NCBI GenBank assembly: GCA_964620475.1
Contig: CAZUJN010000001.1
Coordinates: forward strand, 4,651-68,650
Source: an uncultured Candidatus Saccharibacteria bacterium
GTDB lineage: Bacteria > Patescibacteriota > Minisyncoccia > Phycocordibacterales > CAIZLB01
Length of the DNA: 64,000 nt
Direction: 5' to 3'
The first letter of the stretch is position 1, and every line of letters begins with the position of its first letter. The notes under the pieces are model-generated. The model was not told where the DNA came from, made no database searches, and worked only from the letters and a program-made list of their open reading frames with translations. The translations under genes were made by a program, and so were the position numbers. Of this stretch, positions 13,348-63,679 are shown in pieces.

Positions 13348-13351
13348 ATTT

Positions 13352-13681: not shown

Positions 13682-13745
13682 ATATATAAAATAACATTTT
13701 TTCTAATACTTTACAAATGAAAGTATAAAGACTATAATTATCTCT

Positions 13746-31791: not shown

Positions 31792-31796
31792 CATCA

Positions 31797-48021: not shown

Positions 48022-48756
48022 ATGTTCCACACATTATTTTATAAACCAATGTATAATGCATTGATTTTTATATTAGATATTTTACCTAACCACGATGTAG
48101 CTATTGCGGTAATAATTTTAACTGTTTTTATTAAAATTGTATTATTACCCCTTTCTCATAAAATGTTTAAAACACAAATATTACAAAGAAAGGTTCAACC
48201 TATAATATCTAAAATTCAAGAGGAATATAAAGATAATAGACAGATGCTTGGTATAAAATTATTAGAGGTTTATAAAGAACATAAACTAAACCCCTTCTCT
48301 TCTATATTGTTAATGTTAATACAAATACCTATAGTATTTGCTTTATATTTTGTTTTTTATAAAGGTGGTTTACCAAACATAAACACCATAGATCTATATA
48401 GTTTTACACCTTTTGTTAATAATGTTAACCATATATTATTTAATGTTGATTTTACAAAAGCAAATAGCTTTGTTGGATTGGTTGCTGCTTTGTTTCAATA
48501 TGCTCAAATACGTTTATCTCTTCAAAACATACAAACAACAGATAAACCTATTAATGAATTAAAACCTGAAGAAATAATGCAAAAACAAATGAGTTTTATG
48601 ATGAAGTGGTTTATACCGGTTTTGATCTTTATAGCCTCTTTAAAGGTTTCCGCAGCTGTAGCGTTGTATTGGATAGTCTCTTCTGTTTTTATGATAATAC
48701 AAGAATTATATTTTAGAAATAAATATAAAGAAGAGTTATTAAGCTTGAAGAAATAA
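48022..48756 (+). CDS. yidC: Membrane protein insertase YidC/Oxa1 (short form)
   Basis: 244 aa multi-TM protein immediately after rnpA; conserved synteny; hydrophilic-face TM pattern. Confidence 0.65.
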   Translation: MFHTLFYKPMYNALIFILDILPNHDVAIAVIILTVFIKIVLLPLSHKMFKTQILQRKVQPIISKIQEEYKDNRQMLGIKLLEVYKEHKLNPFSSILLMLIQIPIVFALYFVFYKGGLPNINTIDLYSFTPFVNNVNHILFNVDFTKANSFVGLVAALFQYAQIRLSLQNIQTTDKPINELKPEEIMQKQMSFMMKWFIPVLIFIASLKVSAAVALYWIVSSVFMIIQELYFRNKYKEELLSLKK

Positions 48757-48816: not shown

Positions 48817-50130
48817 TTAGATTTCGTATTTCCACAAACTTAAAGAGTTTTTATCTTGAAACAATAAGTATTTGTTTGTATTTGATATTTTAATTTTATA
48901 TATATCTATGGAATTACTTACCATGTCTTGTAATGGAATTATTAATTTAAACTCACCGTTTACTGGATTTATTGACCAGATATTATCTGTAAATTCTATA
49001 TTATTTTTATACCAAGCCTCTGGGTAAGGTGCTTGATATAGTTTTTGTGGTATACCACAGAAAATAAGTTTAGAGTCGTTTGACCAAACACATTTATCTA
49101 CTATTGTTGCCTGTGATAAATATGTGTTTGTTTTTGATTTTATATCATAAATAAACGTTTCCAATGTGTTATTTATTATTTCATTATATATAACCTTTTT
49201 ACCATCAGGAGATACTAATGTATTAAATCCATACTTCTCACCTATTATATAAGTGTTTTTACCTTTACCATCAGGGTTTAAAAAGAATAAATACCCAGGA
49301 AAATAAGCACTTGGTTTTGTTGTTAAAGCTATTGTTGTTTTGTTTACATATTGAGATAACCACTCTGATAATACAGTATTTAATACATTTGTTCTTACTC
49401 CACCATCAAAACTAGATAATACACCTGTACCGGTATTATTTATAAAATAAAACAACCTTTTTGTTTCTTTTGATAAAGATAAGTTTGATGAACTTATATT
49501 AATATTACCCACATTTGCATTATATAAAGTTGAGGTTGCTGTATCTTTTATTAGTTTTAAATATGTTGTTGATATTGTCTCGTTGTCATCAGAAACCTTT
49601 CTGATTATTGCTGATATATTGTCTATAAACAAAACTTCTTCTGCCCCTATGAGTGTGAAGTAGGATAGCTTGTTTAAATCTGTTGTAGAGGCCAAATTTT
49701 CGTAAATATTACCTGTTTTCCTATCCCATAAGTATATGAATTCTTGATTCTTATAAATTTTTTTGTTTTTTATAGCCTGAATTACACTTGTTGTGGAATT
49801 ATTTGTGGAGGTAGCGACTTCTTCTATATCTTTATAAACAAAATCAAAACCACTAACAGGTTCTTTCCATATTTGTACTAATTTAGTTTTTGTTGTGTTA
49901 GTTGTTGGATTTTCTACAGATTTTTCATCACCTTCTTGTACATCATTTGACTGTGTTGATGTTGAGACTCTGGTTTGAAAAGGTGTTCTTGTTGGGTTTG
50001 TGTTTGTAACAGTGTTGTAATCAGATAAGTCACCTTGTGACACTTTATAGAATTTATATCCAAAATAAACTCCAAGACCAAATATGATTATAATTAATAT
50101 TATTATTGTTTTTTTGATTATATTTTGCAT
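48817..50130 (-). CDS. Membrane-anchored (N-terminal TM) beta-propeller-like protein (TolB-like PDGK repeats); last gene of the T4SS-like locus
   Basis: 437 aa; N-terminal TM IIILIIIIFGLGVYFGY; repeated ...PDGKxxxY... motifs. Confidence 0.4.
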   Translation of the reverse strand: MQNIIKKTIIILIIIIFGLGVYFGYKFYKVSQGDLSDYNTVTNTNPTRTPFQTRVSTSTQSNDVQEGDEKSVENPTTNTTKTKLVQIWKEPVSGFDFVYKDIEEVATSTNNSTTSVIQAIKNKKIYKNQEFIYLWDRKTGNIYENLASTTDLNKLSYFTLIGAEEVLFIDNISAIIRKVSDDNETISTTYLKLIKDTATSTLYNANVGNINISSSNLSLSKETKRLFYFINNTGTGVLSSFDGGVRTNVLNTVLSEWLSQYVNKTTIALTTKPSAYFPGYLFFLNPDGKGKNTYIIGEKYGFNTLVSPDGKKVIYNEIINNTLETFIYDIKSKTNTYLSQATIVDKCVWSNDSKLIFCGIPQKLYQAPYPEAWYKNNIEFTDNIWSINPVNGEFKLIIPLQDMVSNSIDIYKIKISNTNKYLLFQDKNSLSLWKYEI

Positions 50131-50147
50131 TTTATGTTTTTATTATA

Positions 50148-51341
50148 TTATGGATTTGAAATCTGCGCCCTTGCGGTTCCAAATGTTATATTCCATTGAC
50201 CGGCCGGTATGTTCTTTAAGACACTATTACTACCTATTGTTCCGTTTTCATCGTATATGTCTATTGTATTTGCAAACATTATTCCGTTATAAGAAGAGGC
50301 TGTTGCGTCTTCATAAAAACCAACACATGTTCCGTTTATAAAAACAGCTTGACCTGTTGATGGTCTGTATTTTGATATTAAATCAGGTGAAAGAGCTACT
50401 GAACCTTCTCTTAATAAATTATTTGCATTACCTCTTCTTTGTGCTGTGTTTGAATCCGTAATCGAATCTTTTGTTGCACTATACACAGTAACAACAAGTC
50501 TACCATCTGTTGATCTTACTCCGTTTGGTAAGCTTCTTATAAAATTTTCAGCACCAGATTCGGTCCAGCCAAAAACTGAGTTAAACATTGGGTTGTCTGT
50601 AGGGTTTCCTGTGTAAGGTATATTAGGTATTCCGTTGTTTGGAAAACTCCACCCAGGATTTTGATTTAAAACAGCATCTATACCACTAATGTTCCCTACC
50701 CAACTTGATGTTGCTACTGTTAAAACCTGATTTATACCTTTTTGTATTGATTTATCTACATCTATCTCAGATGGATTAAAATCAAACTCAACAAGCTTTT
50801 TATTAACTGTATACAATATTGTGTATGACAACAGACCTAAACCTAAAGCAATGAAACTGTTTGTTAATCTCTTCTTGGCCGCACCTTTTTTACCTACAGC
50901 TTCCTCTGTCATGTATTGTATACCTGATACAGCTATACTTATTACTGTTAACATTATTATTACAGTTATACCAACAGTAAAAAGCATTTTAACTATATCT
51001 TCTGTAGCGTTTGATACATTAACACAGGTTACATTTGGATTCTGTTTACTTTTTGTTAAAGATGAACCTATACCAGGAAAAGAGGTGTCTATACCTGAAA
51101 AAGGTTGATATTGCTTATCTTTTACATAATTACAATCTTTAGATGTAAACAACATTTGAACCAAAGTTTTTTGTTGTTCTGGTGCTGTTGGTGTTATGGA
51201 TGATCCTGGTGTTGTGGCAGGTTGAAGATTTGCAACACCACCTGGAATATTGGTGTTTGTTGGAAGATTAACAGCCGCTGAAACAGATATTGTTGTTAAA
51301 AATATTAGTATATATACTAGAGTGAATAATTTTTTATTCAT
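50148..51341 (-). CDS. Cell-wall hydrolase paralogue A: shared N-terminal module (signal peptide + two TM helices) + C-terminal 3D/MltA-like (Asp-rich double-psi beta-barrel) domain
   Basis: N-terminal 233 aa identical to next gene; C-terminal VALSPDLISKYRPSTGQAVFINGTCVGFYEDATASSYNGIMFANTIDIYDENG resembles 3D-domain motif. Confidence 0.55.
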   Translation of the reverse strand: MNKKLFTLVYILIFLTTISVSAAVNLPTNTNIPGGVANLQPATTPGSSITPTAPEQQKTLVQMLFTSKDCNYVKDKQYQPFSGIDTSFPGIGSSLTKSKQNPNVTCVNVSNATEDIVKMLFTVGITVIIMLTVISIAVSGIQYMTEEAVGKKGAAKKRLTNSFIALGLGLLSYTILYTVNKKLVEFDFNPSEIDVDKSIQKGINQVLTVATSSWVGNISGIDAVLNQNPGWSFPNNGIPNIPYTGNPTDNPMFNSVFGWTESGAENFIRSLPNGVRSTDGRLVVTVYSATKDSITDSNTAQRRGNANNLLREGSVALSPDLISKYRPSTGQAVFINGTCVGFYEDATASSYNGIMFANTIDIYDENGTIGSNSVLKNIPAGQWNITFGTARAQISNP

Positions 51342-51342
51342 A
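50641..51342. repeat. Copy 1 of ~702-bp direct repeat (identical 5' gene module)
   Basis: Identical translations in two frames (main ORF and shadow ORFs 50821..51108 / 52109..52396) imply nucleotide identity. Confidence 0.85.
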
Positions 51343-51378
51343 TCTAGATTATATCAAATTATTATGAGAGTTTGTATT

Positions 51379-52629
51379 TTATACTTTCTGACAAGATCTA
51401 TAAACATAAGTTTGTAGTCTCTTTTGTAGGTTATAATAACTAAACCACGATTGTGGTGTGAAGTGATCATCAACCATAGCCTGAGATGAACTGTTTGAAA
51501 CTATTTTACCTGTGCTTGTGTATATACCAACATGACCATGATTTGTTCCAACTGTTGGTGAGATTATTATATCTCCTGGTGTTGCTGCTGAAGGGTCTTG
51601 GCTCACCATACAAAAATAAATACTTGATGATAATGCATTGTTCATATCTATGGTGCTTTTTCCGTATGTATCCTCATCTCTTGTTATTGGCATACCCAAA
51701 GCTTTGTTTATAATATCATTCACAACAAAAGCACAAGCTAAAGCGCCACCAGATGTACCAGTATAATTACATGTCTTTGTACCAAGCATGTCTAAGGCCT
51801 CTTGATTTATTCTTTGGGCTGCCAATGTGTTTATTGATCCAGAACCAAAACCTGCTGTTGGTATTCCTCCTGAAAATGGATTGTTCGGGTTGGTTATTGA
51901 ACCTGGTGTTGTCGGTAAACCTCCTGAAGGAAAACTCCACCCAGGATTTTGATTTAAAACAGCATCTATACCACTAATGTTCCCTACCCAACTTGATGTT
52001 GCTACTGTTAAAACCTGATTTATACCTTTTTGTATTGATTTATCTACATCTATCTCAGATGGATTAAAATCAAACTCAACAAGCTTTTTATTAACTGTAT
52101 ACAATATTGTGTATGACAACAGACCTAAACCTAAAGCAATGAAACTGTTTGTTAATCTCTTCTTGGCCGCACCTTTTTTACCTACAGCTTCCTCTGTCAT
52201 GTATTGTATACCTGATACAGCTATACTTATTACTGTTAACATTATTATTACAGTTATACCAACAGTAAAAAGCATTTTAACTATATCTTCTGTAGCGTTT
52301 GATACATTAACACAGGTTACATTTGGATTCTGTTTACTTTTTGTTAAAGATGAACCTATACCAGGAAAAGAGGTGTCTATACCTGAAAAAGGTTGATATT
52401 GCTTATCTTTTACATAATTACAATCTTTAGATGTAAACAACATTTGAACCAAAGTTTTTTGTTGTTCTGGTGCTGTTGGTGTTATGGATGATCCTGGTGT
52501 TGTGGCAGGTTGAAGATTTGCAACACCACCTGGAATATTGGTGTTTGTTGGAAGATTAACAGCCGCTGAAACAGATATTGTTGTTAAAAATATTAGTATA
52601 TATACTAGAGTGAATAATTTTTTATTCAT
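51379..52629 (-). CDS. Cell-wall hydrolase paralogue B: shared N-terminal module + C-terminal CHAP (Cys/His-dependent amidohydrolase/peptidase) domain; VirB1/PrgK-like function inferred
   Basis: C-terminal TGTSGGALACAFVV...GDIIIS...GHVGIYTSTG is a CHAP-domain pattern (catalytic Cys then His). Confidence 0.6.
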   Translation of the reverse strand: MNKKLFTLVYILIFLTTISVSAAVNLPTNTNIPGGVANLQPATTPGSSITPTAPEQQKTLVQMLFTSKDCNYVKDKQYQPFSGIDTSFPGIGSSLTKSKQNPNVTCVNVSNATEDIVKMLFTVGITVIIMLTVISIAVSGIQYMTEEAVGKKGAAKKRLTNSFIALGLGLLSYTILYTVNKKLVEFDFNPSEIDVDKSIQKGINQVLTVATSSWVGNISGIDAVLNQNPGWSFPSGGLPTTPGSITNPNNPFSGGIPTAGFGSGSINTLAAQRINQEALDMLGTKTCNYTGTSGGALACAFVVNDIINKALGMPITRDEDTYGKSTIDMNNALSSSIYFCMVSQDPSAATPGDIIISPTVGTNHGHVGIYTSTGKIVSNSSSQAMVDDHFTPQSWFSYYNLQKRLQTYVYRSCQKV

Positions 52630-52630
52630 A
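51929..52630. repeat. Copy 2 of ~702-bp direct repeat
   Basis: See copy 1; 586-bp unique spacer between copies. Confidence 0.85.
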
Positions 52631-52633
52631 TTC

Positions 52634-53635
52634 TTATTTGTTTGTGTCTATGATATACAATATGTCTTTTGATTGTAGTATTGAGTTTTGGTTTTTTATT
52701 TTTATAGAAAGTTTAGATAATTCATCATCCTTCTTTTTTCTAAAAGATAACTCATTTGATGAATTTTTTATTTGTACATCATTTATATACCAACTATATA
52801 TTGTTGCTAAAGTTGAGTTTATTCCATAATAGAATGGATATGATACTATGGTTGCTTCGTTTTTACTTAATCTAAATTGAGGCTTGATTGTTTTGTTGAA
52901 TAATATTCCTAATAAAGGACTTTTTTCATAACTAATAATTTCTGTATCTAATGTTGGTATTCTTAATATAGCCTCATTGTTGTATGTTTTTGTTACAGTA
53001 TCTTTGTATGAATTTAATGCTGAAACAACCACACTAAATAAAGGCTCTTTTTTTAAGATATCACCTTTGTATGAAAAAGATGAATAACCAGCACCCGAAA
53101 CACTTCCTTTAACAACACCATCAACGCTCCACTTATAATTATTATATGTGTTTGTTAAAGGATTTTCTTGATCAAGGTTTATGGCATTTAGAATAATAGA
53201 TGATTCTGGTGTATACATTGATTTTCCTTTATAAAAAGGTGGTGTATAAGTTCTTGATTCCCATATTAATATAATTTTTTTAGGATCAAATACGAATTGT
53301 TTTTGTATTTTTGAACCATAATTTGTTGTAATCTCTAAATCAACCGTACTTTTTTTATCCAACACAAAATTTATTTTATTTAAACCCACACCAGATTTAA
53401 ATGATTTGTTGTTGATTTTCCAATCAAAAGCGGAATCAGAAATATTTGTACCATACATTTCTGCTGATATTGTGATTGTGTCACCTATGTTTGGTCTTTC
53501 TGGGTAAATATTAAAATATGTTTTCTCTTCTAATTCTGAAAAGTTTTCGGGCCCTGTTGCAGCATATGTATTTGAGGTTAAAAAATAGAAAAAAACTATT
53601 ATAAATATAAGTATAGATTTATAATTTAAATTCAT
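52634..53635 (-). CDS. Secreted hypothetical protein of the T4SS-like locus
   Basis: 333 aa; signal peptide SILIFIIVFFYFLTSNTYA; beta-rich. Confidence 0.4.
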   Translation of the reverse strand: MNLNYKSILIFIIVFFYFLTSNTYAATGPENFSELEEKTYFNIYPERPNIGDTITISAEMYGTNISDSAFDWKINNKSFKSGVGLNKINFVLDKKSTVDLEITTNYGSKIQKQFVFDPKKIILIWESRTYTPPFYKGKSMYTPESSIILNAINLDQENPLTNTYNNYKWSVDGVVKGSVSGAGYSSFSYKGDILKKEPLFSVVVSALNSYKDTVTKTYNNEAILRIPTLDTEIISYEKSPLLGILFNKTIKPQFRLSKNEATIVSYPFYYGINSTLATIYSWYINDVQIKNSSNELSFRKKKDDELSKLSIKIKNQNSILQSKDILYIIDTNK

Positions 53636-53654
53636 AAATTAATTATAACAGACT

Positions 53655-54029
53655 TTAATCTGAATAATAAGTAAAAAACACATTTGCTGTTATACAAGGT
53701 AGATTTCCTATAACTGGTATACCCTCCCCTAATGCAGTAAACGCCATTGATGTTATTTTTGTTAAATCACTAACTTTTAAAATACCAGAAAAAGCAAACC
53801 AAGGTATAAAAATTACTAAACTTAATATAGAGAATGCTATACCAACACCCGGAATCTCACTTAAAAAGAAACTAAACAAATCTAAAACAACAGCAACTAA
53901 AACCATACATATAAAATTTAATGTCACCCCTTTTTTTAAAAGGTTTTGACCTGCATTTACTGCTTGGGTTGCTTTGTTTGCTGGGTTTAATCTCTCTACC
54001 CTGCTTGGTGTTGCTAATTGTGTAGCCAT
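53655..54029 (-). CDS. Small membrane protein with two hydrophobic helices (VirB2/VirB3-like candidate)
   Basis: 124 aa; overlaps VirB4 stop by 16 nt; no motif. Confidence 0.35.
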   Translation of the reverse strand: MATQLATPSRVERLNPANKATQAVNAGQNLLKKGVTLNFICMVLVAVVLDLFSFFLSEIPGVGIAFSILSLVIFIPWFAFSGILKVSDLTKITSMAFTALGEGIPVIGNLPCITANVFFTYYSD

Positions 54030-55837
54030 TCTTTATTTTTGTCTTTATTAGCATTAGCTAATAATTCTTCTGGGTTAGATGTAATAATGTCATGTTCTGT
54101 TCCTGATGATACAACTTTTAATGCGACGTGTTTTTGACCGGCGAAGAATATACCCTCTCCAACCCCGGACTCCAATAATAAATATTTTTCCTCATCTGTA
54201 AGATTGAATGTCTTTTGAACCATATCTATGGATGAAGGTGATTGTTTTAAAAGAAATTGCATAGATGAGTTTGTTATGATTGGTAGACCATAAGGAGATC
54301 TCAAGAAATCTTCAACATCTTGGGTTATTGTTGAAATACCTAAATAGTATTTACGACCTCTTTTTGCCAATCCAAACAAGAACGAGGCTGTATCTTCAGA
54401 TTTCATCATATACCATGCCTCATCAACAACCAAAAGCCTCTTTTTCAACTCTTTTCTAACAAGATTCCATATGTGATGCATAACTATATACATAGCCACA
54501 GGTTTTAATTCTTCTTCCATATCTCTAAGTGAAAAAACCACAAGCTTTTTGTTTATGTCTAGGTTAGATGGTTTATTTATAAAGCCAGACCAAGTACCTT
54601 TTGTATATTTTGTAAGCCTTTGTACAAGCGACTCTCCTCCCTCCATACCAGCTAATACAAGTTCAAAATCAGACATAAGCGGTGGTTCTATTGCAGCAAA
54701 ATTTGATTCTGGGGTTATGTCTTTAAGTGCATATGTTTCTGTTATTGCTCTATCTATAACAGAATCCTCTTCTGGTGTAAGTCCTCCAAGCATAAGCCTA
54801 AACAACCCTACTAGATTTACTATATGTGATCTTAAAACATCTGCTGGAGACTCATCTTCTCTTGGTACAGGAAGATCGAACGGGTTGATGTGGTTTTCTG
54901 AAGTAAGTGATATGTTAAAATATCTACCACCAAGTGTTTCGGTCATTCTCTCATATTCTCTTTCGGGGTCTAGAACTATAACATCAACATCAAACATTAA
55001 AGATCTCAATATTTCTAATTTTGTTGCGTATGATTTACCTGAACCAGACTTTGCAAAAGTTACTGAGTTGTAGTTTTCAAGCGAAAATCGATCAAATAAC
55101 ACTAAACCGTTGTTGTGTCTGTTTAAACCATATAAAATACCTTTATCTGATGTTAAATCAAAAGATATAAAAGGAAATATACTTGATAATGGTGCAGAAT
55201 TTAGTTTTGAATGCACAGCCATCTCATCAGTTGCTACAGGTATAGTTGTTTTGAAACCTTGTTCTTGTTGAAATAGTGATGGTTTTATAAATACAAGTGA
55301 AGCCTCAAGTGTTGATTTTATTTCTGATTCAACTTTGTTTAATTCTTCTTCGCTATCACCGTATACTGATATATATATTCCCACATCAAATATTTTCTCT
55401 TGTGCTTGTTGTAAATTATCACGCAGCTGCTCTAAGTTTTGATAAGATGCATCAAGTTGAGGGTCACGAACCAAACCTTTTTCCTCTCTATCGTTTATTT
55501 GACTTTGAACTTCTGCAACTTTCTTTTTGAATTCGTTTAATATAACTGATGTATCTATAGGGTGTACAAATATAGAAACATCAAAAGCTTTATCTAGATT
55601 TATTATAGGAGAAAACCAAGAGTCTGAAAGGTATTTTGGGTATGACATGACGAAGAAGCTTCTAACTAGCTTCTCCCCTAAATTAAGGGTCTTGGGACTT
55701 ATTTTTAGTGCAGAGGGTGCGATAATGTCTTTTAATTCTAATACCGCAGATCTATAAATATCTTTCGGTAATATAGAAGTTATTTGTTGAGTTTTGTTTG
55801 TGTTGTTTTTTGGTTTTAAAAAATCTAGAAATCCCAT
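54014..55837 (-). CDS. VirB4/TrbE/PrgJ-family type IV secretion ATPase
   Basis: Walker A FAKSGSGKSYAT, Walker B LLVVDEAW, length 607 aa typical of Gram-positive VirB4. Confidence 0.85.
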   Translation of the reverse strand: MGFLDFLKPKNNTNKTQQITSILPKDIYRSAVLELKDIIAPSALKISPKTLNLGEKLVRSFFVMSYPKYLSDSWFSPIINLDKAFDVSIFVHPIDTSVILNEFKKKVAEVQSQINDREEKGLVRDPQLDASYQNLEQLRDNLQQAQEKIFDVGIYISVYGDSEEELNKVESEIKSTLEASLVFIKPSLFQQEQGFKTTIPVATDEMAVHSKLNSAPLSSIFPFISFDLTSDKGILYGLNRHNNGLVLFDRFSLENYNSVTFAKSGSGKSYATKLEILRSLMFDVDVIVLDPEREYERMTETLGGRYFNISLTSENHINPFDLPVPREDESPADVLRSHIVNLVGLFRLMLGGLTPEEDSVIDRAITETYALKDITPESNFAAIEPPLMSDFELVLAGMEGGESLVQRLTKYTKGTWSGFINKPSNLDINKKLVVFSLRDMEEELKPVAMYIVMHHIWNLVRKELKKRLLVVDEAWYMMKSEDTASFLFGLAKRGRKYYLGISTITQDVEDFLRSPYGLPIITNSSMQFLLKQSPSSIDMVQKTFNLTDEEKYLLLESGVGEGIFFAGQKHVALKVVSSGTEHDIITSNPEELLANANKDKNKEWLHN

Positions 55838-55847
55838 AATGTATATA

Positions 55848-56465
55848 TTACATCTTTATTGGTTTTTCTGCATCTCCTGGATTAAATATTCTATAAAACA
55901 ATTCAACCAATTCCTCACTTCCTAGTCTTGCAACTTTAACACCACATCTTGCTAAACCTTGTTCAACCACAGATATTCTTTGTTCTAGCTGACTCTTTAT
56001 TTCTTCAAACTCATCATTTTTGTTTTTTGTTTCGTCTTTGTCTTTTTTTAGTATATTTGCAATTCCTTTTGTTGGACTTGATACAGGGTCATAAGGAATA
56101 ACCAAAAAGAAACTCTTTGTCATAATATTTGAACCTTCTGTTAAACCTTTAATGAACATTATGTATTCACTAATTTGTATTTTCATCAAATCACTGGTTT
56201 GAGCCTTTAGTCTCTCCTCCAATAATGCTATATAAGGTCTAATATCTAATTTTCTTGATTGTACATATATTTGTACTGAAAAATCCAGAGAGTTCAAGAA
56301 GTTTTGAAATTGATATATAACAGATTCTTGTTCCTCTGTTGATTTTAATGCAAAGTTTATTGACGTAGCCAATACAACCGCTCTCATAGAGCCATCTTTT
56401 AAGATCATAATACCTTCACGTATTTCATTTATAGGTACAAATTCTTGTGATGGGTTTATTGCCAT
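55848..56465 (-). CDS. Hypothetical protein (205 aa), possibly VirB4 N-terminal-domain-like, 10 bp upstream of VirB4
   Basis: EIREGIMILKDGSMRAVVLATSINFAL resembles the VirB4 N-terminal consensus (..tkdGsl.a..ev.gi.f..); weak. Confidence 0.3.
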   Translation of the reverse strand: MAINPSQEFVPINEIREGIMILKDGSMRAVVLATSINFALKSTEEQESVIYQFQNFLNSLDFSVQIYVQSRKLDIRPYIALLEERLKAQTSDLMKIQISEYIMFIKGLTEGSNIMTKSFFLVIPYDPVSSPTKGIANILKKDKDETKNKNDEFEEIKSQLEQRISVVEQGLARCGVKVARLGSEELVELFYRIFNPGDAEKPIKM

Positions 56466-56537
56466 GGGCGACTAGAGAGAATCGAACTCTCGATACAGGA
56501 TCCACAAACCTGAGTTTTGCCACTAAACTATAGTCGC
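56466..56537 (-). tRNA. tRNA-His (anticodon GUG) with genomically encoded G-1 opposite C73; CCA not encoded
   Basis: Reverse complement G-GCGACTA-TA-GTTT-AGTGGCA-AAAC-T-CAGGT-TTGTGGA-TCCTG-TATC-GAGAG-TTCGATT-CTCTC-TAGTCGC-C; one U-U mismatch at 31:39. Confidence 0.8.
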
Positions 56538-56578
56538 CATGCTTGTATTTATATCATATATACAAGCTTTTTTCAATT

Positions 56579-57001
56579 TTACTCTTTATTGGTTGGGTAG
56601 ACATTTTTGTTAACATCCAAACTCCAAGCCAAATCTTTTAACTTACTTTGTGATAGTGAAGGTGCAATTATTGAATCAATACTCTTTGTTTCAATTTCTT
56701 TCTTCTCTGCTGTGACTGGTTTATCTATTTTTTTCCATATATATAATTTTGATTTTGTTACATAAGCAAACCCTGCTGCCAAAATATCAACAAAATCTTT
56801 ATTATTTATTTTTACAAAAGCCAATGAACCTGCTAAGATCCACAAAACTATCATTAATATTATTCCAGGAAAGAAGCCTAATATTTTGTATATTATATAA
56901 GTACCACCTAATCCACCTAATATATAGATAAATTGCTTAAAACTAAATGGTCCTATTATTTTACTATCGAATTCTATAAATTGTGGTACTTGATATCTCA
57001 T
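56579..57001 (-). CDS. PrgI/VirB3-like small membrane protein of Gram-positive-type T4SS
   Basis: MRYQVPQFIEFDSKIIGPFSFKQFIYIL N-terminus resembles the PrgI family; two TM helices; 140 aa. Confidence 0.45.
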   Translation of the reverse strand: MRYQVPQFIEFDSKIIGPFSFKQFIYILGGLGGTYIIYKILGFFPGIILMIVLWILAGSLAFVKINNKDFVDILAAGFAYVTKSKLYIWKKIDKPVTAEKKEIETKSIDSIIAPSLSQSKLKDLAWSLDVNKNVYPTNKE

Positions 57002-57002
57002 A

Positions 57003-57755
57003 TTATTCTATTGGTTCTCTATATATATCGTTTAGGTTTATATTAATTGGTTTTTTAATTTCTGACTGTGTTTTGGTTTCGGATTCCTTAACAATTTTTT
57101 CTTCATGAAATGGTGTCTCTAGCTCTTTGTTTTGTAGTTGATGGTCTGGTTCTATTGGTTTTATTTCTGGTTGTGGGGCTGTAAATTTAATCTCGGTCTC
57201 CACTCTAGGTTTTACTGGTTCTGGTGATTCTATGGCTTTTAATATATCATCTTTTTCTTGATCTATATTTTCAGGTATTTCTTTTATCTCTTCTTTTACA
57301 GGTTCTTTTGCTAATTCCTCTTCTACTTCTTGGTTTATTTTTTCAGCTTCTTTGTAGAATTGTGCATAGGTCTCTGCTTCCTCTTTTTGTTCTATTTCTT
57401 CTTCAGACATAAGCGCTTTTTCAAACTCTTCCTCCTCTTCTTCACTTTTTTCCATCGATTCTAGTCGTTCTCTTATTTTTTTTAATATTTGCATATCAAC
57501 ATCTAGCAATATATCAGCGGCTGTTTCAGAGTTTACGTGTCCGTTGTTGAACATGTTTGAGATAAAATCAGGGGCATCTATATCACCAAACATAAGTTTA
57601 ATAACTGAATCCTCTAAGACTTGTGTCTGGTCTATGTGCAATTTATATTTGTTTTGTATATTAATTAATGATTCCTCCCAATCGGACATCATTACTGCAT
57701 ATTGTAAGTTTTCGGGTAGAGTTTTTAATTTTTCTTCGTAATATGTTTGATTCAT
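57003..57755 (-). CDS. Acidic Glu-rich hypothetical protein
   Basis: 250 aa, E/K-rich coiled-coil-like. Confidence 0.35.
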   Translation of the reverse strand: MNQTYYEEKLKTLPENLQYAVMMSDWEESLINIQNKYKLHIDQTQVLEDSVIKLMFGDIDAPDFISNMFNNGHVNSETAADILLDVDMQILKKIRERLESMEKSEEEEEEFEKALMSEEEIEQKEEAETYAQFYKEAEKINQEVEEELAKEPVKEEIKEIPENIDQEKDDILKAIESPEPVKPRVETEIKFTAPQPEIKPIEPDHQLQNKELETPFHEEKIVKESETKTQSEIKKPININLNDIYREPIE

Positions 57756-57775
57756 TTTTTTTGTTTTTTTACTTT

Positions 57776-60748
57776 CTACTTATTTTCTTTTTTTGCATCT
57801 TCTATTTTTTGTAGATGTTCGCTTAATTTCATCTTTTTTTCTATTAACTCTTCTTCATGTTTGTTTAATTTCTCTATGTACTTATTTTTTGATTCTTCAA
57901 GATTATCTTCTAGTTTTTTGATTGCTTCAGGACTGATATTACCTCTTTTTTTGGCTGATTTTAGGTATATTATGTTTTTATTTATTTCTTTTATTTCATC
58001 TGTATTGTCACCGTCTCCAACATATTTACTGTCTTGTGATATACATTCTTTTATTTTGTCTTCTGTAGGCAGTTTACTTAATTTAGATTCTATTGTCTTT
58101 ATATCTTTTTCATATTTTTTCGTCCTATCCTCGTTTCTTTGTGTTGAAGCTGTGGTGCTCTTACTGTTTTTTATTTTAGATGATATTGCTGTGATTCTTG
58201 CTTTTGCTTTTTCATTCTTTCTTCTAAATGTTTCTAATGCCCTCTTTTGATCATTGGTTATATCAGCACCATTTTGTGCCCCTTCGCCATCTGTGTGATA
58301 TTTAACAACGTTTTCTAATTCGGTGTGCATTGCATGCTCGTTTAATCTTACTGTTATTTTCTTGTTACCTTGATCGTCTGTTGTTTCTGATTTTATAACA
58401 GCTGCTCTTCTTATATTATCTAGATGTGATAATGCATTACCTTTATCATCTTTTTTGCCTGAGTTTATTTGTACGACACCTTTGCCAAGTAATGCTGATG
58501 ATCTATCTTCTATTAATTTATTTAGATAGTTTTCATAATCATCTGTGGTTTTGTTTTTATTTTTCTTCATCCATTCATCTTGTGACATAGCTTTGTATTT
58601 TGCGTCTATTGCATCATATACAGCATCACGTGTTTCTTTAACACCTTTATCTCTTCTTTCGTCTGCTTGTTTTCTTGTCTCGCCAGCAGAGTTTTTAGGA
58701 TCTTTGAGTTGTGTTGCCATTTTTGCAGCTCTCTCCCCTAATATATTATTTGGATTGTTTGCTGCTATAGATCGGGCAAGATCTCTCATACCTTCTTTAA
58801 CAGTTATGCTTGGATTATAAAAACCTTCACTAAATGTTTTACCTCTCAGTTTACTTAATCCACCTGTTGCTGTTCCTGCTGTCAACTTGGCCGCACCTAT
58901 ACCAACACCGGCCGCTGCTGATGATGATTTCTCCCAAGTTTTTTTGGCTAAGCCTTTTGTGGCTGCATCTTGCCAGCTGCCAAATTTATTTGCAACACTT
59001 TGGCTCCATTTGCCCCCAATGGTCTCACCTGTTCCTGCTGCGTGTTTAACACCATAACTTATAGCTCTCATCATAAATATAATGACTATGACAAATACAG
59101 CAAATACTGATATGGTCTCAGTAGACATACCGCTCGTACCAGCTGCCGGCGGCTGACATATTATCTGTAAGAAGCTTGTTCCGTTTGCTCCTGATCCTAA
59201 TTTTTCAAATATTATAATAGCTACCAACATCCAAAAAAGATATGCTATTGGAAATGTTAATACATGCTTCATTTCTGCCCACCAACTGTCTTTGAACTTA
59301 GAAACATGCGGGTTGTTTGGTAACACATAACCCCAAACCCATAAAGGTGATTTTATAAACAATACTATTATGTTTACTAATCTGACCAAAAACAATACCG
59401 CTGCCAAACCTAAAGCCAAACACAATATAACTAAGAATATTGAACCCAGAACAGATATTGTTATCAATGCCCCAGGATTATTTGCACAAGCGTTTGTACC
59501 AGCCAGACCGCTGTCGGCAAATATTTGGTTTATGTTATATAAAGCAGATAGACCAACAGTGTTCATTACTCTAGCTGATATAGAAGCTGTTGCATCCTGT
59601 GTGCTGCTTGCTTTCATTGTCTCGTATATTTTCAGGGATACTATGTTTGAACCATCAACCATAATCTTGGCCGCAAATAAACTGAAGTTTATTAATATGG
59701 CAACAACCACAACATTCATCAATACTTTTTTTGCATTGTATTGAGCTTCATTACCTATCAATATCTGTATAGCTGCCCACAACAATATAAATATAAAAGT
59801 TATATTTAATATATCCCTTAGAAATGTCCATGTAACCTCTATCACACCAAGTTTTTTGAAAAATTCTGCTGAGTTTATAGAGAGCTCTAATGAGTAGTCA
59901 AACAATACTCCGACTATATATGTGATAAAAGACATCAACTTGAATATGATGTTTGTGCCTTGTGCAACTAACCACATCATACAGTGTGGGGTGAACATAC
60001 TTAAGACAGTGCTGCATTGTGTTTGTGAAGCCTGCCAACCTTGTGTTTGATTGATCTGATTTTCTATTCCAGCCAGCTGACCTCCAGCCTGAACAACCGC
60101 CCTACCGGCCTCATCCGCTGCTTGTCTTGCTGTTCTTGCTGCTGTTATGGCCTGGTCTATTTGGGCCTGTGTTGCATTAGGATCGTTTTGTAATGTTGCA
60201 GCTTCCTGCTCTTTCTGTTTTGCTATTTCTGCTAATCTGTCGTACTCATTTTGTTTTTCTTGTTTTGCTAATTCTGCATTATATCTTTCGTTTTTTAGTT
60301 TAACTGTGGTGCCAGGCTCTAGTCCCTGAGCTTTATCAACTCGATCAAAAAACCCCTCAGCCTCTTTAGATTCTTTGTACATATTAGGATCTTCTGGAAC
60401 AAACATATAGTCTTTTGTTCCATCTTTTTCTTGCACCATTGTTCCTAATACAACAGCATCTCTATTTTTTGTGTTTTCAGGGGTCGGGTCATATATAAAG
60501 ATGTTGTTTTGACCTGTATTAATTCTATAAACATTGTTTGTGTTCCACTTAGCTTCTCTTACATTAAATTTTGAATTAGAAGCCTCCAGTCTTTCTTGTA
60601 ACATTGATAGTTGATAAGGTGCTAGTTCAGAAACTGTCCTATCACCAGAGTATAAGTTCTCTGCCTTTATGGATGTTACTGGTACCAAAAAAACACACAA
60701 GAAGATTATTCCTAAAAAAATATTTTTTATAGATTTATACATATGCAT
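57776..60748 (-). CDS. VirB6/TrbL-like polytopic membrane protein (990 aa): signal peptide, ~250-aa extracytoplasmic domain, 6+ TM helices, long charged/coiled-coil C-terminal tail
   Basis: Architecture matches TrbL/VirB6 and Gram-positive PrgH/TcpH; multiple long hydrophobic helices aa ~250-620. Confidence 0.5.
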   Translation of the reverse strand: MHMYKSIKNIFLGIIFLCVFLVPVTSIKAENLYSGDRTVSELAPYQLSMLQERLEASNSKFNVREAKWNTNNVYRINTGQNNIFIYDPTPENTKNRDAVVLGTMVQEKDGTKDYMFVPEDPNMYKESKEAEGFFDRVDKAQGLEPGTTVKLKNERYNAELAKQEKQNEYDRLAEIAKQKEQEAATLQNDPNATQAQIDQAITAARTARQAADEAGRAVVQAGGQLAGIENQINQTQGWQASQTQCSTVLSMFTPHCMMWLVAQGTNIIFKLMSFITYIVGVLFDYSLELSINSAEFFKKLGVIEVTWTFLRDILNITFIFILLWAAIQILIGNEAQYNAKKVLMNVVVVAILINFSLFAAKIMVDGSNIVSLKIYETMKASSTQDATASISARVMNTVGLSALYNINQIFADSGLAGTNACANNPGALITISVLGSIFLVILCLALGLAAVLFLVRLVNIIVLFIKSPLWVWGYVLPNNPHVSKFKDSWWAEMKHVLTFPIAYLFWMLVAIIIFEKLGSGANGTSFLQIICQPPAAGTSGMSTETISVFAVFVIVIIFMMRAISYGVKHAAGTGETIGGKWSQSVANKFGSWQDAATKGLAKKTWEKSSSAAAGVGIGAAKLTAGTATGGLSKLRGKTFSEGFYNPSITVKEGMRDLARSIAANNPNNILGERAAKMATQLKDPKNSAGETRKQADERRDKGVKETRDAVYDAIDAKYKAMSQDEWMKKNKNKTTDDYENYLNKLIEDRSSALLGKGVVQINSGKKDDKGNALSHLDNIRRAAVIKSETTDDQGNKKITVRLNEHAMHTELENVVKYHTDGEGAQNGADITNDQKRALETFRRKNEKAKARITAISSKIKNSKSTTASTQRNEDRTKKYEKDIKTIESKLSKLPTEDKIKECISQDSKYVGDGDNTDEIKEINKNIIYLKSAKKRGNISPEAIKKLEDNLEESKNKYIEKLNKHEEELIEKKMKLSEHLQKIEDAKKENK

Positions 60749-60787
60749 ACTTACATATAGTATACTATATTAATTTAATAAATTAAA

Positions 60788-62053
60788 TTAATACCCTGTT
60801 TGATTTTGTTGCAACACTCTTCCTAATGCTTGATTTATAAATTGATTAACCAAAGCTGTTACAACTTGATCGAATTTGTCTGCGAAAGCTAATCTTTGTT
60901 TTGGTAAATTAAGTGTTGATTCAAGTTGTCCTTGTATAACTCTTCCTGGTGTTATTGTCTGACAATCTTTTTTATTTGTCTTTGGATTATTTGTACAGGT
61001 TGTGTAATTTAAGAATCCACTGTTCCAATTTAAATCTCTCATTTGACTATTTTGACTAGCGACTATAGCCCCTGTTAATCCACTTGTAGTTCTAAACAAT
61101 GTGTCATACGGATTACCTTGTTGTGTTTGTGTGATATTATACCAAGAATTCCAGCCACCACCTTGTATAAAGTTTCCTTGCATAAAACTATTTAGTTGTC
61201 CTGGGTTTTGATCAAAAGTACAACCAAGGAATCCGTTGCTTAAACCCCTGTTTACGTATCCACCTGTTTGATATCCATATCCATAAGGCTGATTTGCTCC
61301 GTATTGAGCCAATGTTGCCCTAACCATAGCTTCCCTGTATACATCACATACATTTGTCCCACCTGATAAACCATAAGCCAGATTCTGTATAAAAGATGCC
61401 GCTTCTTCATCAGCCAACTGTTTGAAGAACATGTCAGGATTATTTAGAAAGGCCGGGTTTCCGTCAAAACCTGTGTTAATCCATAATATTGTTGAATCAG
61501 CTATGTAACCAATCATTGAATTTACTATACAATATGCTACAGAATCCCAACTGGGTAATGATAAGACACCGCCAAGACCTACTGTACCAACAGATGCACT
61601 TGTCTGGGCTTTTATATTTTCTCCAACAACACCTTGTTCGGATGTTGGAACTAGCGTTAATGATCCGGCAATATTTTGTGTTGCTTTACCTAAAGCTTTA
61701 GATACACTACCTGTTATAAGGTTTGATAAGACTTGTCCGGCACCGCAACCACCCACTTGTGCAGCTATTGATCCTGCTGCGCCAGTACCTGTTGAGGTTG
61801 CTGTTGATGTTGCGTTCGCAACTATCCCACTTATTTGATTTTGTACATATGCTGAGTTTAGAAAAGGGTTACCAGATGTTTGATAAGGATTATATGTGTT
61901 ATAAGCATTTTGGTTATATACTCCTGTATTGAATCCATTAACTGTGTTTAGGAGTTGTTGATTTTGTATTGTTGTGGTTGGATAATCAATAGCAAAAACC
62001 GACAAAGGTCCAAAAATAATAGTTAGAATTAAGAATATGTTTATTGTTTTCAT
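60788..62053 (-). CDS. Secreted Gly/Asn/Gln/Thr-rich hypothetical protein (T4SS-like locus)
   Basis: 421 aa; signal peptide INIFLILTIIFGPLSVFA. Confidence 0.4.
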   Translation of the reverse strand: MKTINIFLILTIIFGPLSVFAIDYPTTTIQNQQLLNTVNGFNTGVYNQNAYNTYNPYQTSGNPFLNSAYVQNQISGIVANATSTATSTGTGAAGSIAAQVGGCGAGQVLSNLITGSVSKALGKATQNIAGSLTLVPTSEQGVVGENIKAQTSASVGTVGLGGVLSLPSWDSVAYCIVNSMIGYIADSTILWINTGFDGNPAFLNNPDMFFKQLADEEAASFIQNLAYGLSGGTNVCDVYREAMVRATLAQYGANQPYGYGYQTGGYVNRGLSNGFLGCTFDQNPGQLNSFMQGNFIQGGGWNSWYNITQTQQGNPYDTLFRTTSGLTGAIVASQNSQMRDLNWNSGFLNYTTCTNNPKTNKKDCQTITPGRVIQGQLESTLNLPKQRLAFADKFDQVVTALVNQFINQALGRVLQQNQTGY

Positions 62054-62057
62054 TTTT

Positions 62058-62891
62058 TTATTCTATTTTTATGGTTTCATTATTTATGTTATTGTTAGTC
62101 CAAATCATCCCAGGATCATCTGCTGTGTAACTTACTTTATTAAGTATAATTGTTTTTCGGATTTTTTCAAAACCGTTTGTTAATTCAGTGGTAGCTGTTT
62201 GTAAACTGTTTATTCCTAAGAGAGCTCTTGCTGGGTCAGAGTTTTGATACTCTAATAGAGACATGCCTTCTGAATATTTTATATATCCGTTCACAATCAA
62301 TAAATGATTTTCAGCCAATATGTCTGGCACGACAACAGTTTTTAAGACATCTGCCGCGCCCCTATATGCCGCAGCCACATAAGGTGTTTTATCTTTTTTT
62401 GTGTTGATATTTGATATGACCTTAGTTAAGGCATCTTGAACTATAGCCAGGTTTGTACCATATATTTTTAAATTTTCTACACTAGATGATGTTGTTTTTA
62501 TCTGATTTATTGTTATTGTGTTGGCCGATTGAATCTTATTTTTCAATAAATCATTAGTCATTTTCGCTATCTCGTCGGTTTTTATCTCGCCAGAGGTATT
62601 GTATTTTATGTATTGTGTAAAAACATCCTTAGATAGACTATCAGTCAGATTATCGCTACTGTTTTTTTGAAAAGATTTTGAAAATTTTTGAAAGTTTTTG
62701 ATGTTTTCTTCTGTCACTGTTGCTAATATGTTTTCTTGATATCTATCTGCTTTAGTTACAATCTTTCCGTTTTCATCAACAACTATGTTGTCGGAGAATT
62801 TGTCTATTAATTTATCTTTTTGGGTAATCGAAAAAACTATTATAAGAAGAAAAACGCAAACCGCTGCTATGTTTAAAGTATGCTTATTCAT
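62058..62891 (-). CDS. Membrane-anchored/secreted hypothetical protein (first gene of T4SS-like locus)
   Basis: 277 aa; N-terminal hydrophobic LNIAAVCVFLLIIVFSI. Confidence 0.4.
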   Translation of the reverse strand: MNKHTLNIAAVCVFLLIIVFSITQKDKLIDKFSDNIVVDENGKIVTKADRYQENILATVTEENIKNFQKFSKSFQKNSSDNLTDSLSKDVFTQYIKYNTSGEIKTDEIAKMTNDLLKNKIQSANTITINQIKTTSSSVENLKIYGTNLAIVQDALTKVISNINTKKDKTPYVAAAYRGAADVLKTVVVPDILAENHLLIVNGYIKYSEGMSLLEYQNSDPARALLGINSLQTATTELTNGFEKIRKTIILNKVSYTADDPGMIWTNNNINNETIKIE

Positions 62892-63669
62892 TAATGTTAT
62901 TATATAACAATTCTGTTATATAAATCCAATCAACAGGTTTTAACTCTTCTGGTCTTCTGTTTTTATATTTTTCATCTTTTATTTTTAGTGTAGATCCGAG
63001 CTGCTTTCTTTTACTATTGAACGCTTTTTTTGCTATGTCCCAATATTTTTTCTCAAAATCTGTGTTTTTGTTTAAGAATAGATTTCTATTTATATTTTTT
63101 ATTATCATAACCACCGAATCTACATTTGGTACAGGGGTAAAGTTGCCACGAGATACTTTTAAAAAATTATATGATTCGCCATATGTGTTTATCCCGAGAG
63201 AAAACAGGCTCTTTTTGCTATCTTTTGCTCTGTCACCTATTTCTTTCTGTACCATCAGTATCATGGATTTTGGTTGATTTTTTGATTCCAGGAACTGTCT
63301 TATGATATATCCTGTAAGATAATAAGGTATGTTTGCAATTATTATATAATCTTTTATGTCTTTTTCTGTGTCTATATTAAACCCTCTTATATCTCTATGT
63401 ATTATTTTTAGGTTTTTGTGGTCTTTTTTAGGAAATCTGTCTTCTAGTATTGGTATTGCCCTGTCATCGGCCTCTATGCATATAACCTTATTTTCTTTAC
63501 ACTTCTCTAGTATCTCTGCGGTTAATTCACCTGTTCCTGGTCCTATTTCTAATATTTGTGTATTTTTATCTATATATTGCAAAGATTCTTTAACTATTTT
63601 TTGTATAATCGTTTTGTTACTCAGAAAATTTTGGCCCAGTGATTTTTTTGCTTGCAATATATGTTTCAT
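62884..63669 (-). CDS. rsmA: 16S rRNA (adenine1518/1519-N6)-dimethyltransferase RsmA/KsgA
   Basis: LGQNFL motif, SAM-binding EIGPGTGELT, NIPY motif. Confidence 0.9.
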   Translation of the reverse strand: MKHILQAKKSLGQNFLSNKTIIQKIVKESLQYIDKNTQILEIGPGTGELTAEILEKCKENKVICIEADDRAIPILEDRFPKKDHKNLKIIHRDIRGFNIDTEKDIKDYIIIANIPYYLTGYIIRQFLESKNQPKSMILMVQKEIGDRAKDSKKSLFSLGINTYGESYNFLKVSRGNFTPVPNVDSVVMIIKNINRNLFLNKNTDFEKKYWDIAKKAFNSKRKQLGSTLKIKDEKYKNRRPEELKPVDWIYITELLYNNINE

Positions 63670-63679
63670 TGATATTGTT

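Follow-up and report, generated by a model that had tools for sequence, protein, structure and literature searches.

A putative type IV secretion system locus of the Patescibacteria clade near dnaA in a Paceibacteria chromosome

The DNA analyzed here is a stretch of 64,000 nucleotides from an uncultured bacterium of the Patescibacteria (contig CAZUJN010000001.1, positions 4,651 to 68,650; the whole stretch is referred to as "the window"). The minus strand of the window at 48817-62891 carries a gene cluster that we interpret as a chromosomally fixed, vertically inherited type IV secretion system (T4SS) of the Patescibacteria clade, in its Paceibacteria (Parcubacteria) form and descended from the monoderm systems of the mating-pair formation class FATA (MPF-FATA). 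The probability of this interpretation is estimated to be about 0.85. The cluster consists of 12 co-directional open reading frames (ORFs) with very short or overlapping junctions and a tRNA-His(GTG) gene on the same strand (Table 1). An earlier note, made from the sequence of the window, had counted thirteen co-directional genes; the total is right, although one of the thirteen is the tRNA gene.

VirB4, its conservation and the question of mobility

The assignment of the VirB4 ATPase is firm. The protein scored 368 bits against a cutoff of 325 with NF045971 (VirB4-like conjugal transfer ATPase, CD1110 family) and E=1e-24 with the Pfam TraG P-loop model. Walker A (AKSGSGKS) and Walker B (LLVVDE) motifs were located at residues 262 and 468, respectively, in agreement with the earlier note, which had read a VirB4 ATPase with both motifs. 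The 607-aa ORF aligns to positions 179-734 of the CD1110 model only, while the N-terminal part of the model (2-120) is matched by a separate TrsD-like ORF located 10 nt upstream of virB4; VirB4 is thus split in two ORFs, a feature that the earlier note had missed. The TrsD-like ORF also matched TraC_F_IV (14-175), VirB4_CagE (9-180) and NCBIfam TrsD (E=1e-7), its precomputed annotation is TraC-like (PF26593), and its assignment is likewise firm.

There are thousands of homologues of VirB4, of which the best 120 (about 605 aa) come from Parcubacteria, Paceibacteria or Patescibacteria where a source is named, except for one record labelled Arenimonas, and the closest relatives of every cassette gene are from Paceibacteria or Parcubacteria. 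The best plasmid VirB4s are CD1110-family proteins of Firmicutes and Actinobacteria. The grouping of VirB4 with Patescibacteria, and not with plasmids or integrative and conjugative elements (ICEs), is one of identity (78-100% versus at most 35%) and not of a formal phylogeny.

For comparison, 80 loci were taken from a one-genome-per-species scan by VirB4 similarity. They belong to metagenome-assembled genomes of Paceibacteria, including Kaiser-, Adler-, Taylor-, Nomura- and Wolfebacteria, and the gene order was determined by tblastn of each window protein against them. The common order is ksgA-m277-s421-VirB6-like-ac250-PrgI-TrsD-VirB4-(m124)-s333-(pilin-hairpin proteins)-bp437-yidC-(rnpA)-dnaA-dnaN, and the cassette keeps this order and its position in about 80 genomes. 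Across these loci, which span orders of Paceibacteria, the identity of VirB4 is 73-100%. TrsD was matched in 79 of the 80 and, where complete, is an ORF of its own (184-230 aa). The median identities are 75% for VirB4, 61% for TrsD, 50% for DnaA, 46% for PrgI, 40% for KsgA, 37% for YidC, 32% for DnaN and about 28% for the VirB6-like protein, s333, s421 and bp437. VirB4 and TrsD are therefore more conserved than the DnaA, KsgA, YidC and DnaN of the same loci, and the identity of VirB4 co-varies with that of DnaA (rho=0.62, p=8.5e-7). The cluster thus evolves, demonstrably in part and presumably as a whole, like or more slowly than core replication genes. Taken together, the conserved order, the co-divergence of VirB4 and DnaA and the distance to plasmid VirB4s point to a vertically transmitted set of chromosomal operons under strong purifying selection, and indicate a strongly constrained chromosomal machine rather than a mobile element.

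Mobility genes were examined in the window and about 2 kb beyond it. Domains of VirD4/TcpA-type type IV coupling proteins (T4CPs), relaxases and integrases were not present in any window ORF of at least 300 aa, as the earlier note had stated for coupling protein and relaxase. A check for an oriT found no notable inverted repeats in the locus, and no att-like repeats were seen. The GC content of the locus (0.325) shows no compositional anomaly relative to the rest of the window (0.314). A complete adjacent conjugative module, the alternative that the earlier note had raised, is absent; the neighbours are ksgA and uvrD on one side and yidC-rnpA-dnaA-dnaN on the other. An ICE was rejected on the synteny, the co-divergence with DnaA, the composition and the lack of mobility genes in the window, so that the earlier preference for a T4SS of the type found in the Candidate Phyla Radiation (CPR) over an ICE is supported.

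Two weaker forms of the conjugative explanation were also considered. In the first, DNA would be transferred by conjugation with a T4CP and a relaxase encoded elsewhere in the genome, as in a dispersed ICE or a chromosomal-transfer system. The passing score of VirB4 with a curated family of conjugal-transfer ATPases and the size of the inspected stretch (64 kb plus about 2 kb) are compatible with it, T4CP genes are often located at a distance from virB4, and Patescibacteria genomes commonly encode VirD4-like proteins (PMC12102498). However, a relaxase was detected in only 103 of the 3035 Patescibacteria genomes surveyed (PMC12102498), and in Southlakia epibionticum the T4SS is essential while the T4CP is not (PMC12102498, PMC10633639). 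The fixed housekeeping position in about 80 genomes, the divergence along with DnaA and the lack of an integrase and of visible att-like repeats also argue against this scenario, which we consider quite unlikely. In the second, an integrated conjugative element acquired long ago would have begun to decay, and the locus would be what is left of it, no longer functional. Every ORF is intact, however, the conservation of VirB4 exceeds that of DnaA, and a homologous cluster is essential in Saccharibacteria (PMC10633639). The absence of T4CP, relaxase and VirB8 and the splitting of VirB4 might be taken as signs of decay, but the TrsD/VirB4 split is itself maintained in 79 loci, and this explanation, which the conservation contradicts, appears extremely improbable.

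The small membrane protein encoded between ac250 and trsD is predicted to be PrgI/VirB3-like, an assignment that is firm at the family level. The window protein alone scored 24.8 bits with PF12666 (PrgI), below the cutoff of 27, while the model matched all 73 orthologues (best E=1.8e-13) and TcpE matched 15 of them; the call in the earlier note is thus upheld through the orthologues. For the 990-aa protein, the polytopic character described by the earlier note is evident, while the match to the VirB6/TrbL family is weak. Hydropathy indicates a signal-like N-terminus followed by an ectodomain of about 230 aa (residues ~30-260), a transmembrane (TM) core with 6-7 hydrophobic segments (~265-565) and a charged, coiled-coil C-terminal tail of about 425 aa. 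The window protein itself had no Pfam match. Profiles of the 60-member family and of its trimmed TM core matched TrwI, the VirB6 of R388 (7o3v_F; E=0.003, 20 bits), which was the sole non-coiled-coil match in the PDB and, for the TM-core profile, the sole match below 0.1. TrbL and TrbL_4 each matched a different two of the 60 orthologues at E values of at least 3.5e-4. The protein was found in 59 of the 80 loci, and its place in the cluster is consistent with VirB6. Homology to VirB6 is therefore probable but not proven.

The VirB6-like protein has a mosaic pattern of conservation. Compared with its counterpart in the closely related locus L001 (4948-8073), the identity is 91% in the TM core, 36% in the ectodomain and 41% in the cytoplasmic tail, while VirB4 and TrsD of the same strain are 100% and PrgI is 99% identical. 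The DNA identity to L001 is about 83% in the left half (ksgA to the VirB6-like gene) and about 95% in the right half. These values hint at a recombination breakpoint together with fast-evolving VirB6 termini. Recombination as the sole cause was rejected because the ectodomain and the tail are outliers even against the ~83% background of the left half.

Further components of the cassette and its chromosomal setting

Both proteins encoded between s333 and bp437 have a VirB2-like pilin hairpin, which the earlier note had overlooked. With the 416-aa protein, T4SS_pilin (PF18895) gave E=5e-4 and the pilin-like model of the Mollicutes ICE protein Mbov_0395 gave E=1e-4. Across orthologues, PF18895 matched 32 of 40 (best E=2.4e-10) and TrbC/VirB2 three. 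The N-terminal 233 codons of the two genes are identical, including the two-helix hairpin with its KKGAAKKR loop. In the 416-aa protein the hairpin is followed by an NlpC/P60 domain (PF00877, 23.3 bits against a cutoff of 23), whose motifs ALACAFVV (296) and GHVGIY (365) probably contain the catalytic Cys and His, as read by eye. The C-terminus of the 397-aa paralogue had no Pfam match at E<=5 and no PDB profile match; orthologous C-termini occur in loci L001, L014 and L017. A 3D domain (PF06725) was considered for this protein and not retained in view of the same searches, and the resemblance noticed by eye (SVALSPDLI...IDIYD) is a lead only. Of the two peptidoglycan hydrolases proposed by the earlier note, the NlpC/P60 protein was thus verified, while the one with a 3D domain was not confirmed. 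The domain attached to the hairpin varies between genomes (NlpC/P60, SLT, CHAP, Amidase_5 and Peptidase_S8), and at least 100 aa follow the hairpin in 34 of the 40 orthologues.

The identity of the two N-terminal regions is due to an exact direct repeat of 703 bp, which spans the first 233 codons and 2 nt upstream of tandem genes with different C-termini. Over window positions 52602-64000, an independent Logan assembly (L082, SRR12487046) shows 100% identity; it stops 30 nt inside the repeat. Tandem pairs of an NlpC/P60 protein and a protein with another domain, with diverged N-termini, are present in L006, L014 and L017. Recent gene conversion is a plausible origin of the repeat; alternatively, it may be an assembly artefact that joined two strain variants. 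A further observation concerns L001, the closest relative, where the single pilin-hairpin/hydrolase gene (13209-14144), split by gene callers, is devoid of the hairpin segment (0 residues aligned) through either a deletion or an assembly collapse of the repeat.

Table 1 Features of the T4SS locus and of the surrounding window.
Feature	Position	Strand	Length	Description and basis
m277	62058..62891	-		N-terminally membrane-anchored, exported all-helical protein; first cassette gene
s421	60788..62053	-		Secreted protein of a large uncharacterised family; signal-like N-terminus
VirB6-like	57776..60748	-	990 aa	Extended polytopic membrane protein, probable VirB6 homologue; hydropathy and family profile
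ac250	57003..57755	-		Acidic cytoplasmic protein; 65 D+E versus 30 K+R, no TM segment
PrgI/VirB3-like	56579..57001	-		Small membrane protein; PF12666 via orthologues
tRNA-His(GTG)	56466..56537	-		Inside the cluster, between prgI and trsD; ARAGORN and Rfam RF00005 (62.4 bits)
TrsD-like	55848..56465	-	205 aa	Stand-alone VirB4 N-terminal domain; TraC/TrsD/VirB4 model matches
VirB4	54014..55837	-	607 aa	C-terminal ATPase portion; NCBIfam and Pfam, Walker motifs
m124	53655..54029	-		Small membrane protein with three TM segments; hydropathy; overlaps the virB4 stop codon
s333	52634..53635	-		Exported or anchored protein, possibly about three Ig-like beta-sandwich repeats; profile matches
Pilin-hairpin/hydrolase	51379..52629	-	416 aa	VirB2-like pilin hairpin (residues 118-182) and C-terminal NlpC/P60 peptidoglycan endopeptidase
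Pilin-hairpin paralogue	50148..51341	-	397 aa	C-terminal 165 aa of unassigned family; T4SS_pilin E=2.8e-4
bp437	48817..50130	-		N-terminally anchored, probable TolB-like beta-propeller; last cassette gene, convergent with yidC
Direct repeat	50641-51343 = 51929-52631		703 bp	Exact; 5' parts of both pilin-hairpin genes
ksgA/rsmA	62884-63669			Flanking gene; Pfam
yidC	48022-48756			Flanking gene, convergent; Pfam
dnaA	46098-47465			Flanking gene; Pfam
PilB-like	38226-39908	+		ATPase of type IV pilus/type II secretion system; T2SSE 397 bits, MshEN domain
SmpB fusion	30239-31357	+		SmpB (residues 3-146) and C39-like papain-fold peptidase (173-338)
tmRNA	31405-31794	+		Directly 3' of the SmpB fusion gene
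tRNA-Ile	27806-27881	-		Anticodon TAT (UAU)
Large ORF	8741-12751	-	1336 aa	No Pfam match at E<=1e-3
Large ORF	31833-34877	-	1014 aa	No Pfam match at E<=1e-3
Large ORF	17300-19234	-	644 aa	No Pfam match at E<=1e-3
Large ORF	35383-36600	-	405 aa	No Pfam match at E<=1e-3

Six conserved cassette proteins (s421, s333, bp437, m124, m277 and ac250) belong to no known family. In total, seven of the twelve proteins are unassigned to a family, and these keep their place in 18 to 72 of the 80 loci. Four of them (s333, s421, ac250 and bp437) had been listed in the earlier note as of no recognisable family and possibly specific to the system; they are indeed conserved in the cassette, although s333 and bp437 do show weak fold signals. 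s333 lies directly downstream of virB4 in 72 of the 80 loci. Its profile matched the Ig-like phage T4 Hoc protein (E=8.5e-5), its 69 orthologues gave 20 matches to BiPBP_C, PKD_3 or Ig_3, and the conserved Trp residues 72, 169 and 282 recur with a period of about 100 aa, which weakly suggests about three immunoglobulin (Ig)-like domains. bp437 has two invariant cysteines and was found in 61 loci. Its top 12 PDB profile matches were all TolB (E=0.02-0.1) and the PD40 repeat was present in 4 of 59 orthologues, lending weak support to the beta-propeller proposed in the earlier note.

s421 is found at the same position in 55 loci and has an invariant W..GF.GNPAF signature within a conserved W-I-N-x-G-F-x-G-N-P-A-F motif, together with conserved cysteines. 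A search with its profile retrieved 5369 clusters (50% identity) at E<=1e-3, 2404 of them at E<=1e-30, but no Pfam or PDB profile match, and its AlphaFold2 model was unusable (mean predicted local distance difference test score, pLDDT, of 52 even with a 53-sequence alignment). ac250 is located between the VirB6-like and PrgI genes in 36 loci. About 100 aa at its N-terminus form a conserved domain, the middle part is variable, acidic and proline-rich, and a DPYREP motif is conserved at the C-terminus. The protein had no PDB profile match, and its sole Pfam match, COG2_C, was weak and was dismissed as spurious. A jackhmmer search with a threshold of 30 bits detected m124 homologues, likewise small membrane ORFs, between virB4 and s333 in 34 loci, 31 of them beyond the close relatives L001, L002 and L004, with no consistent Pfam family and no PDB family. 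The ATG of m277 overlaps the end of ksgA. By architecture m277 was the best VirB8 candidate, but its model (mean pLDDT 74) is all-helical and matches generic bundles only; m277 is not the missing VirB8. A bitopic VirB8-like protein with an NTF2 fold, such as PrgL, TcpC or TraM, was not found in the cassette, where s333 appears Ig-like and bp437 TolB-like and s421 gave no usable model.

The G-1 of the tRNA-His is encoded at 56538, and only one nucleotide, a C, lies between the discriminator base and the trsD start codon (ATG). A tRNA-His at this position is found only in the closest clade (L001, L003-L010 and L012; VirB4 at least 85% identical); in L006-L010 the prgI-trsD spacer is 195-794 nt long, with the tRNA at its 5' end. 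An extended -10-like element (TGATATAAAT) ends 9 nt before the tRNA-His, within a covarying 8-bp inverted repeat located just upstream.

Hexamers resembling a -10 element, with at least five of six matches to TATAAT, were counted across the 80 loci, and they were present 6-8 nt before the ATG of trsD in 24/75, prgI in 37/73, s333 in 28/71, yidC in 24/59 and dnaA in 11/51 cases; no such concentration precedes virB4, s421 or the gene of the VirB6-like protein. In the window, TATAAT is located 6-7 nt before the ATG of m277, s333 and the second pilin-hairpin gene (starts at 62891, 53635 and 51341), and no Shine-Dalgarno sequence is visible before these three genes. This pile-up suggests leaderless mRNAs, which would be widespread in Paceibacteria, and several internal promoters. 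For the clade bearing the tRNA, we hypothesize that a near-leaderless trsD-virB4 mRNA would be set free when the tRNA is processed at its 3' end. A consensus scan of the locus for promoters and terminators was uninformative, with counts at or below the shuffle expectation.

The surroundings are those of an ordinary chromosome. Upstream of the cassette in the order of transcription are ksgA/rsmA and the end of a UvrD helicase gene, and the DNA just past the window end encodes UvrD; on the other side, yidC is followed by rnpA, dnaA, dnaN and a class A penicillin-binding protein gene. The remainder of the window encodes ribonucleotide reductase, RecG, FtsH, SmpB with tmRNA, PilB, RuvB, TatC, malic enzyme and pseudouridine synthases. 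The PilB-like gene lies about 9 kb from the T4SS cluster, which places both envelope machines close to the replication origin. The fusion of SmpB with a C39-like peptidase is an unusual domain pairing for a trans-translation factor. The tRNA-Ile(UAU) is an uncommon bacterial route to reading AUA without a lysidine-modified tRNA-Ile2. The four large ORFs with no Pfam match may encode CPR-specific surface or giant proteins.

Comparison with published systems

T4SSs of this type have been described previously. The origin-proximal cluster SEML1_0006-0019 of the saccharibacterium S. epibionticum, which encodes pilins and lacks a recognisable coupling protein and relaxase, is essential for epibiotic growth (Wang et al. 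2023, PMC10633639). A survey of 3035 Patescibacteria genomes (Quinonero-Coronel et al. 2025, PMC12102498) placed their VirB4s in a monophyletic clade nested in MPF-FATA and listed, in the vicinity of virB4, genes for TrsD, PrgI/VirB3, VirB6, VirB2-like and VirB1-like proteins. In the same survey, VirB8 and relaxases were scarce and the neighbourhood in Paceibacteria comprised dnaA, dnaN, rnpA, ksgA and rpmH. A 2025 review lists the Patescibacteria systems as a new T4SS subgroup (PMC12857230). Since the first two studies describe the system, its proximity to dnaA and the absence of relaxases, the system type is already known, and by its sequence the window represents a further well-resolved instance of it.

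The locus shares with the Patescibacteria clade the repertoire of TrsD, VirB4, PrgI/VirB3, a probable VirB6 and VirB2-like pilin, the position beside dnaA, dnaN, rnpA and ksgA, the lack of a relaxase or T4CP gene at the locus, and genes for wall hydrolases downstream of virB4. In the Saccharibacteria cluster, six small and divergent pilins form an array, whereas here hairpins are present only within the 397- and 416-aa proteins, whose C-terminal domains are of enzyme size. The subclade of the window differs from the published systems by the tRNA-His inside the cluster, and the papers cited here do not name s421, s333, bp437, m124, m277 or ac250. We also did not find the hairpin-tethered hydrolases, the operon-internal tRNA-His, the likely leaderless promoters, the exact 703-bp repeat or the mosaic VirB6 in the cited literature on Patescibacteria T4SSs.

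Among MPF-FATA systems (trsC-trsD-trsE of pGO1, prgH-prgI-prgJ-prgK-prgL of pCF10, and CD1110 of C. difficile/C. perfringens), the common features are a CD1110-family VirB4, a PrgI/TcpE-type VirB3, a polytopic, probable VirB6/PrgH analogue and a membrane-tethered hydrolase of NlpC/P60 or CHAP type, like PrgK or TraG. The separate TrsD-like N-terminal protein is shared with pGO1 (TrsD/TrsE split). In contrast to these systems, the locus is not on a mobile element, has no T4CP, relaxase, oriT, VirB8-like protein (PrgL/TcpC) or PrgB-type adhesin, and possesses a VirB2-like hairpin with no counterpart in Gram-positive systems.

The ICEs of Mollicutes (Mbov_0395 pilin-like protein and Mbov_0397 VirB4) gave the next-best NCBIfam matches (265 bits with VirB4_plasma and E=1e-4 with the pilin-like model). 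They likewise combine a wall-reduced or small-genome lineage with MPF-FATA-derived machinery and a pilin-like hairpin. However, neither match comes near its curated cutoff (590 and 40 bits, respectively), and the mycoplasma systems, which include a T4CP and a DDE transposase, are bona fide ICEs. Bordetella Ptl and Brucella VirB are similar to the locus in that they are chromosomal, dedicated to host interaction and need no VirD4 or relaxase. They differ as diderm MPF-T systems with a VirB7/9/10 core complex and VirB11, and they have no sequence relationship to the locus beyond the VirB4 superfamily.

Several points weigh against the interpretation as a Patescibacteria-clade T4SS inherited with the chromosome. 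Because the loci were chosen by VirB4 similarity, the conservation of VirB4 may be modestly inflated. The scores behind the VirB6 call are weak but consistent, and a VirB8-like component was not found. A T4CP or relaxase may be encoded outside the inspected 64 kb, and VirD4-like proteins are encoded far from virB4 in most Patescibacteria genomes (PMC12102498). Finally, with large domains fused to the hairpins, these proteins are unlikely to form a thin pilus of the classical VirB2 type, as far as can be judged from their predicted domains.

Mechanism, direction of transfer and significance

A mechanism can be proposed by analogy with known T4SS architecture. The VirB4 ATPase would be completed in trans by the TrsD-like domain, docked to the membrane by the PrgI/VirB3-like protein and seated on the VirB6-like polytopic protein, which would form a membrane channel or platform. 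As suggested by their domain content, the VirB2-like hairpins may anchor interchangeable wall-degrading domains at the machine, and these would open the peptidoglycan of the symbiont itself, of the host, or of both. The export signals and conserved synteny of s421, m277, s333, bp437 and m124 are consistent with these proteins building an extracellular, host-facing part. The absence of T4CP and relaxase genes at the locus and a rate of evolution like or below that of core replication genes argue for a housekeeping machine of host interaction rather than a conjugation module. By analogy with the homologous cluster that S. epibionticum needs for epibiotic growth (PMC10633639), contact-dependent transfer of macromolecules across the symbiont-host interface is the most likely function. 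Export and import are given comparable weight, and conjugation and the ICE remnant are both unlikely.

Export would correspond to an organelle for attachment and for delivery of effectors or hydrolases, in which secreted or displayed proteins attach to and breach the host envelope. Export signals on most cassette products and the variable catalytic domains on the hairpin (NlpC/P60, SLT, CHAP, amidase and S8) are in line with this function, and so is the hypervariable ectodomain of VirB6 (36% versus 91% in the core), a pattern expected of host-specificity surfaces. Wang et al. also favour protein export or an alternative role (PMC10633639). On the other hand, no effector or secretion signal recognised by a T4CP is known, and proteins with Sec-type N-termini need no T4SS to cross the membrane. 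Most T4SS protein translocators depend on VirD4; Ptl and the Brucella system are exceptions. We regard export as possible, at somewhat less than even odds.

Import would make the locus an uptake machine for host DNA, RNA or nucleotides, analogous to Helicobacter ComB or Sulfolobales Ced. The CedB model (NF041017) gave only 43 bits with VirB4 against a cutoff of 700, with about 85 residues covered, so that VirB4 resembles the conjugative CD1110 family (368 bits) and not a CedB-type ATPase; moreover, domain searches of the cassette revealed neither a nucleic-acid-binding nor a nuclease domain. Import systems need neither a T4CP nor a relaxase, these organisms lack nucleotide biosynthesis, and wall hydrolases tethered at the machine would suit such a role. 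A 2026 preprint reported that a cultivated member of the phylum acquires host RNA and has tubular structures at the interface, tentatively called T4SS pili; it explicitly leaves the link between RNA uptake and the T4SS unresolved (10.64898/2026.06.21.733656). In S. epibionticum, loss of comEC abolished competence without affecting viability (PMC12857230), indicating that the essential function is something other than DNA uptake by this route. Import is thus a tentative explanation at present.

A more far-reaching idea is that the Paceibacteria cassette, beyond being a Gram-positive T4SS reduced in content, is a distinct conduit that breaches the host envelope, possibly as an import route for host RNA or other macromolecules of nucleotide-auxotrophic cells. 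We consider it doubtful. If it were true, the VirB2-like hairpins would be docking modules for interchangeable enzymes that degrade the host wall, the hypervariable ectodomain of VirB6 would set the host range, and the exported proteins (s421, the Ig-repeat protein, the TolB-like propeller and the 3-TM protein) would constitute a fixed set that is present in no published T4SS.

Few machines have been shown to be essential for epibiotic life in this very large and mostly uncultured radiation, and the T4SS of Patescibacteria is one of them. The window leaves that picture unchanged and adds to it a clean and complete Paceibacteria example with a testable list of components, including a VirB4 under constraint above that of DnaA, fusions of pilin hairpins with hydrolases, and a probable VirB6 with a hypervariable ectodomain.

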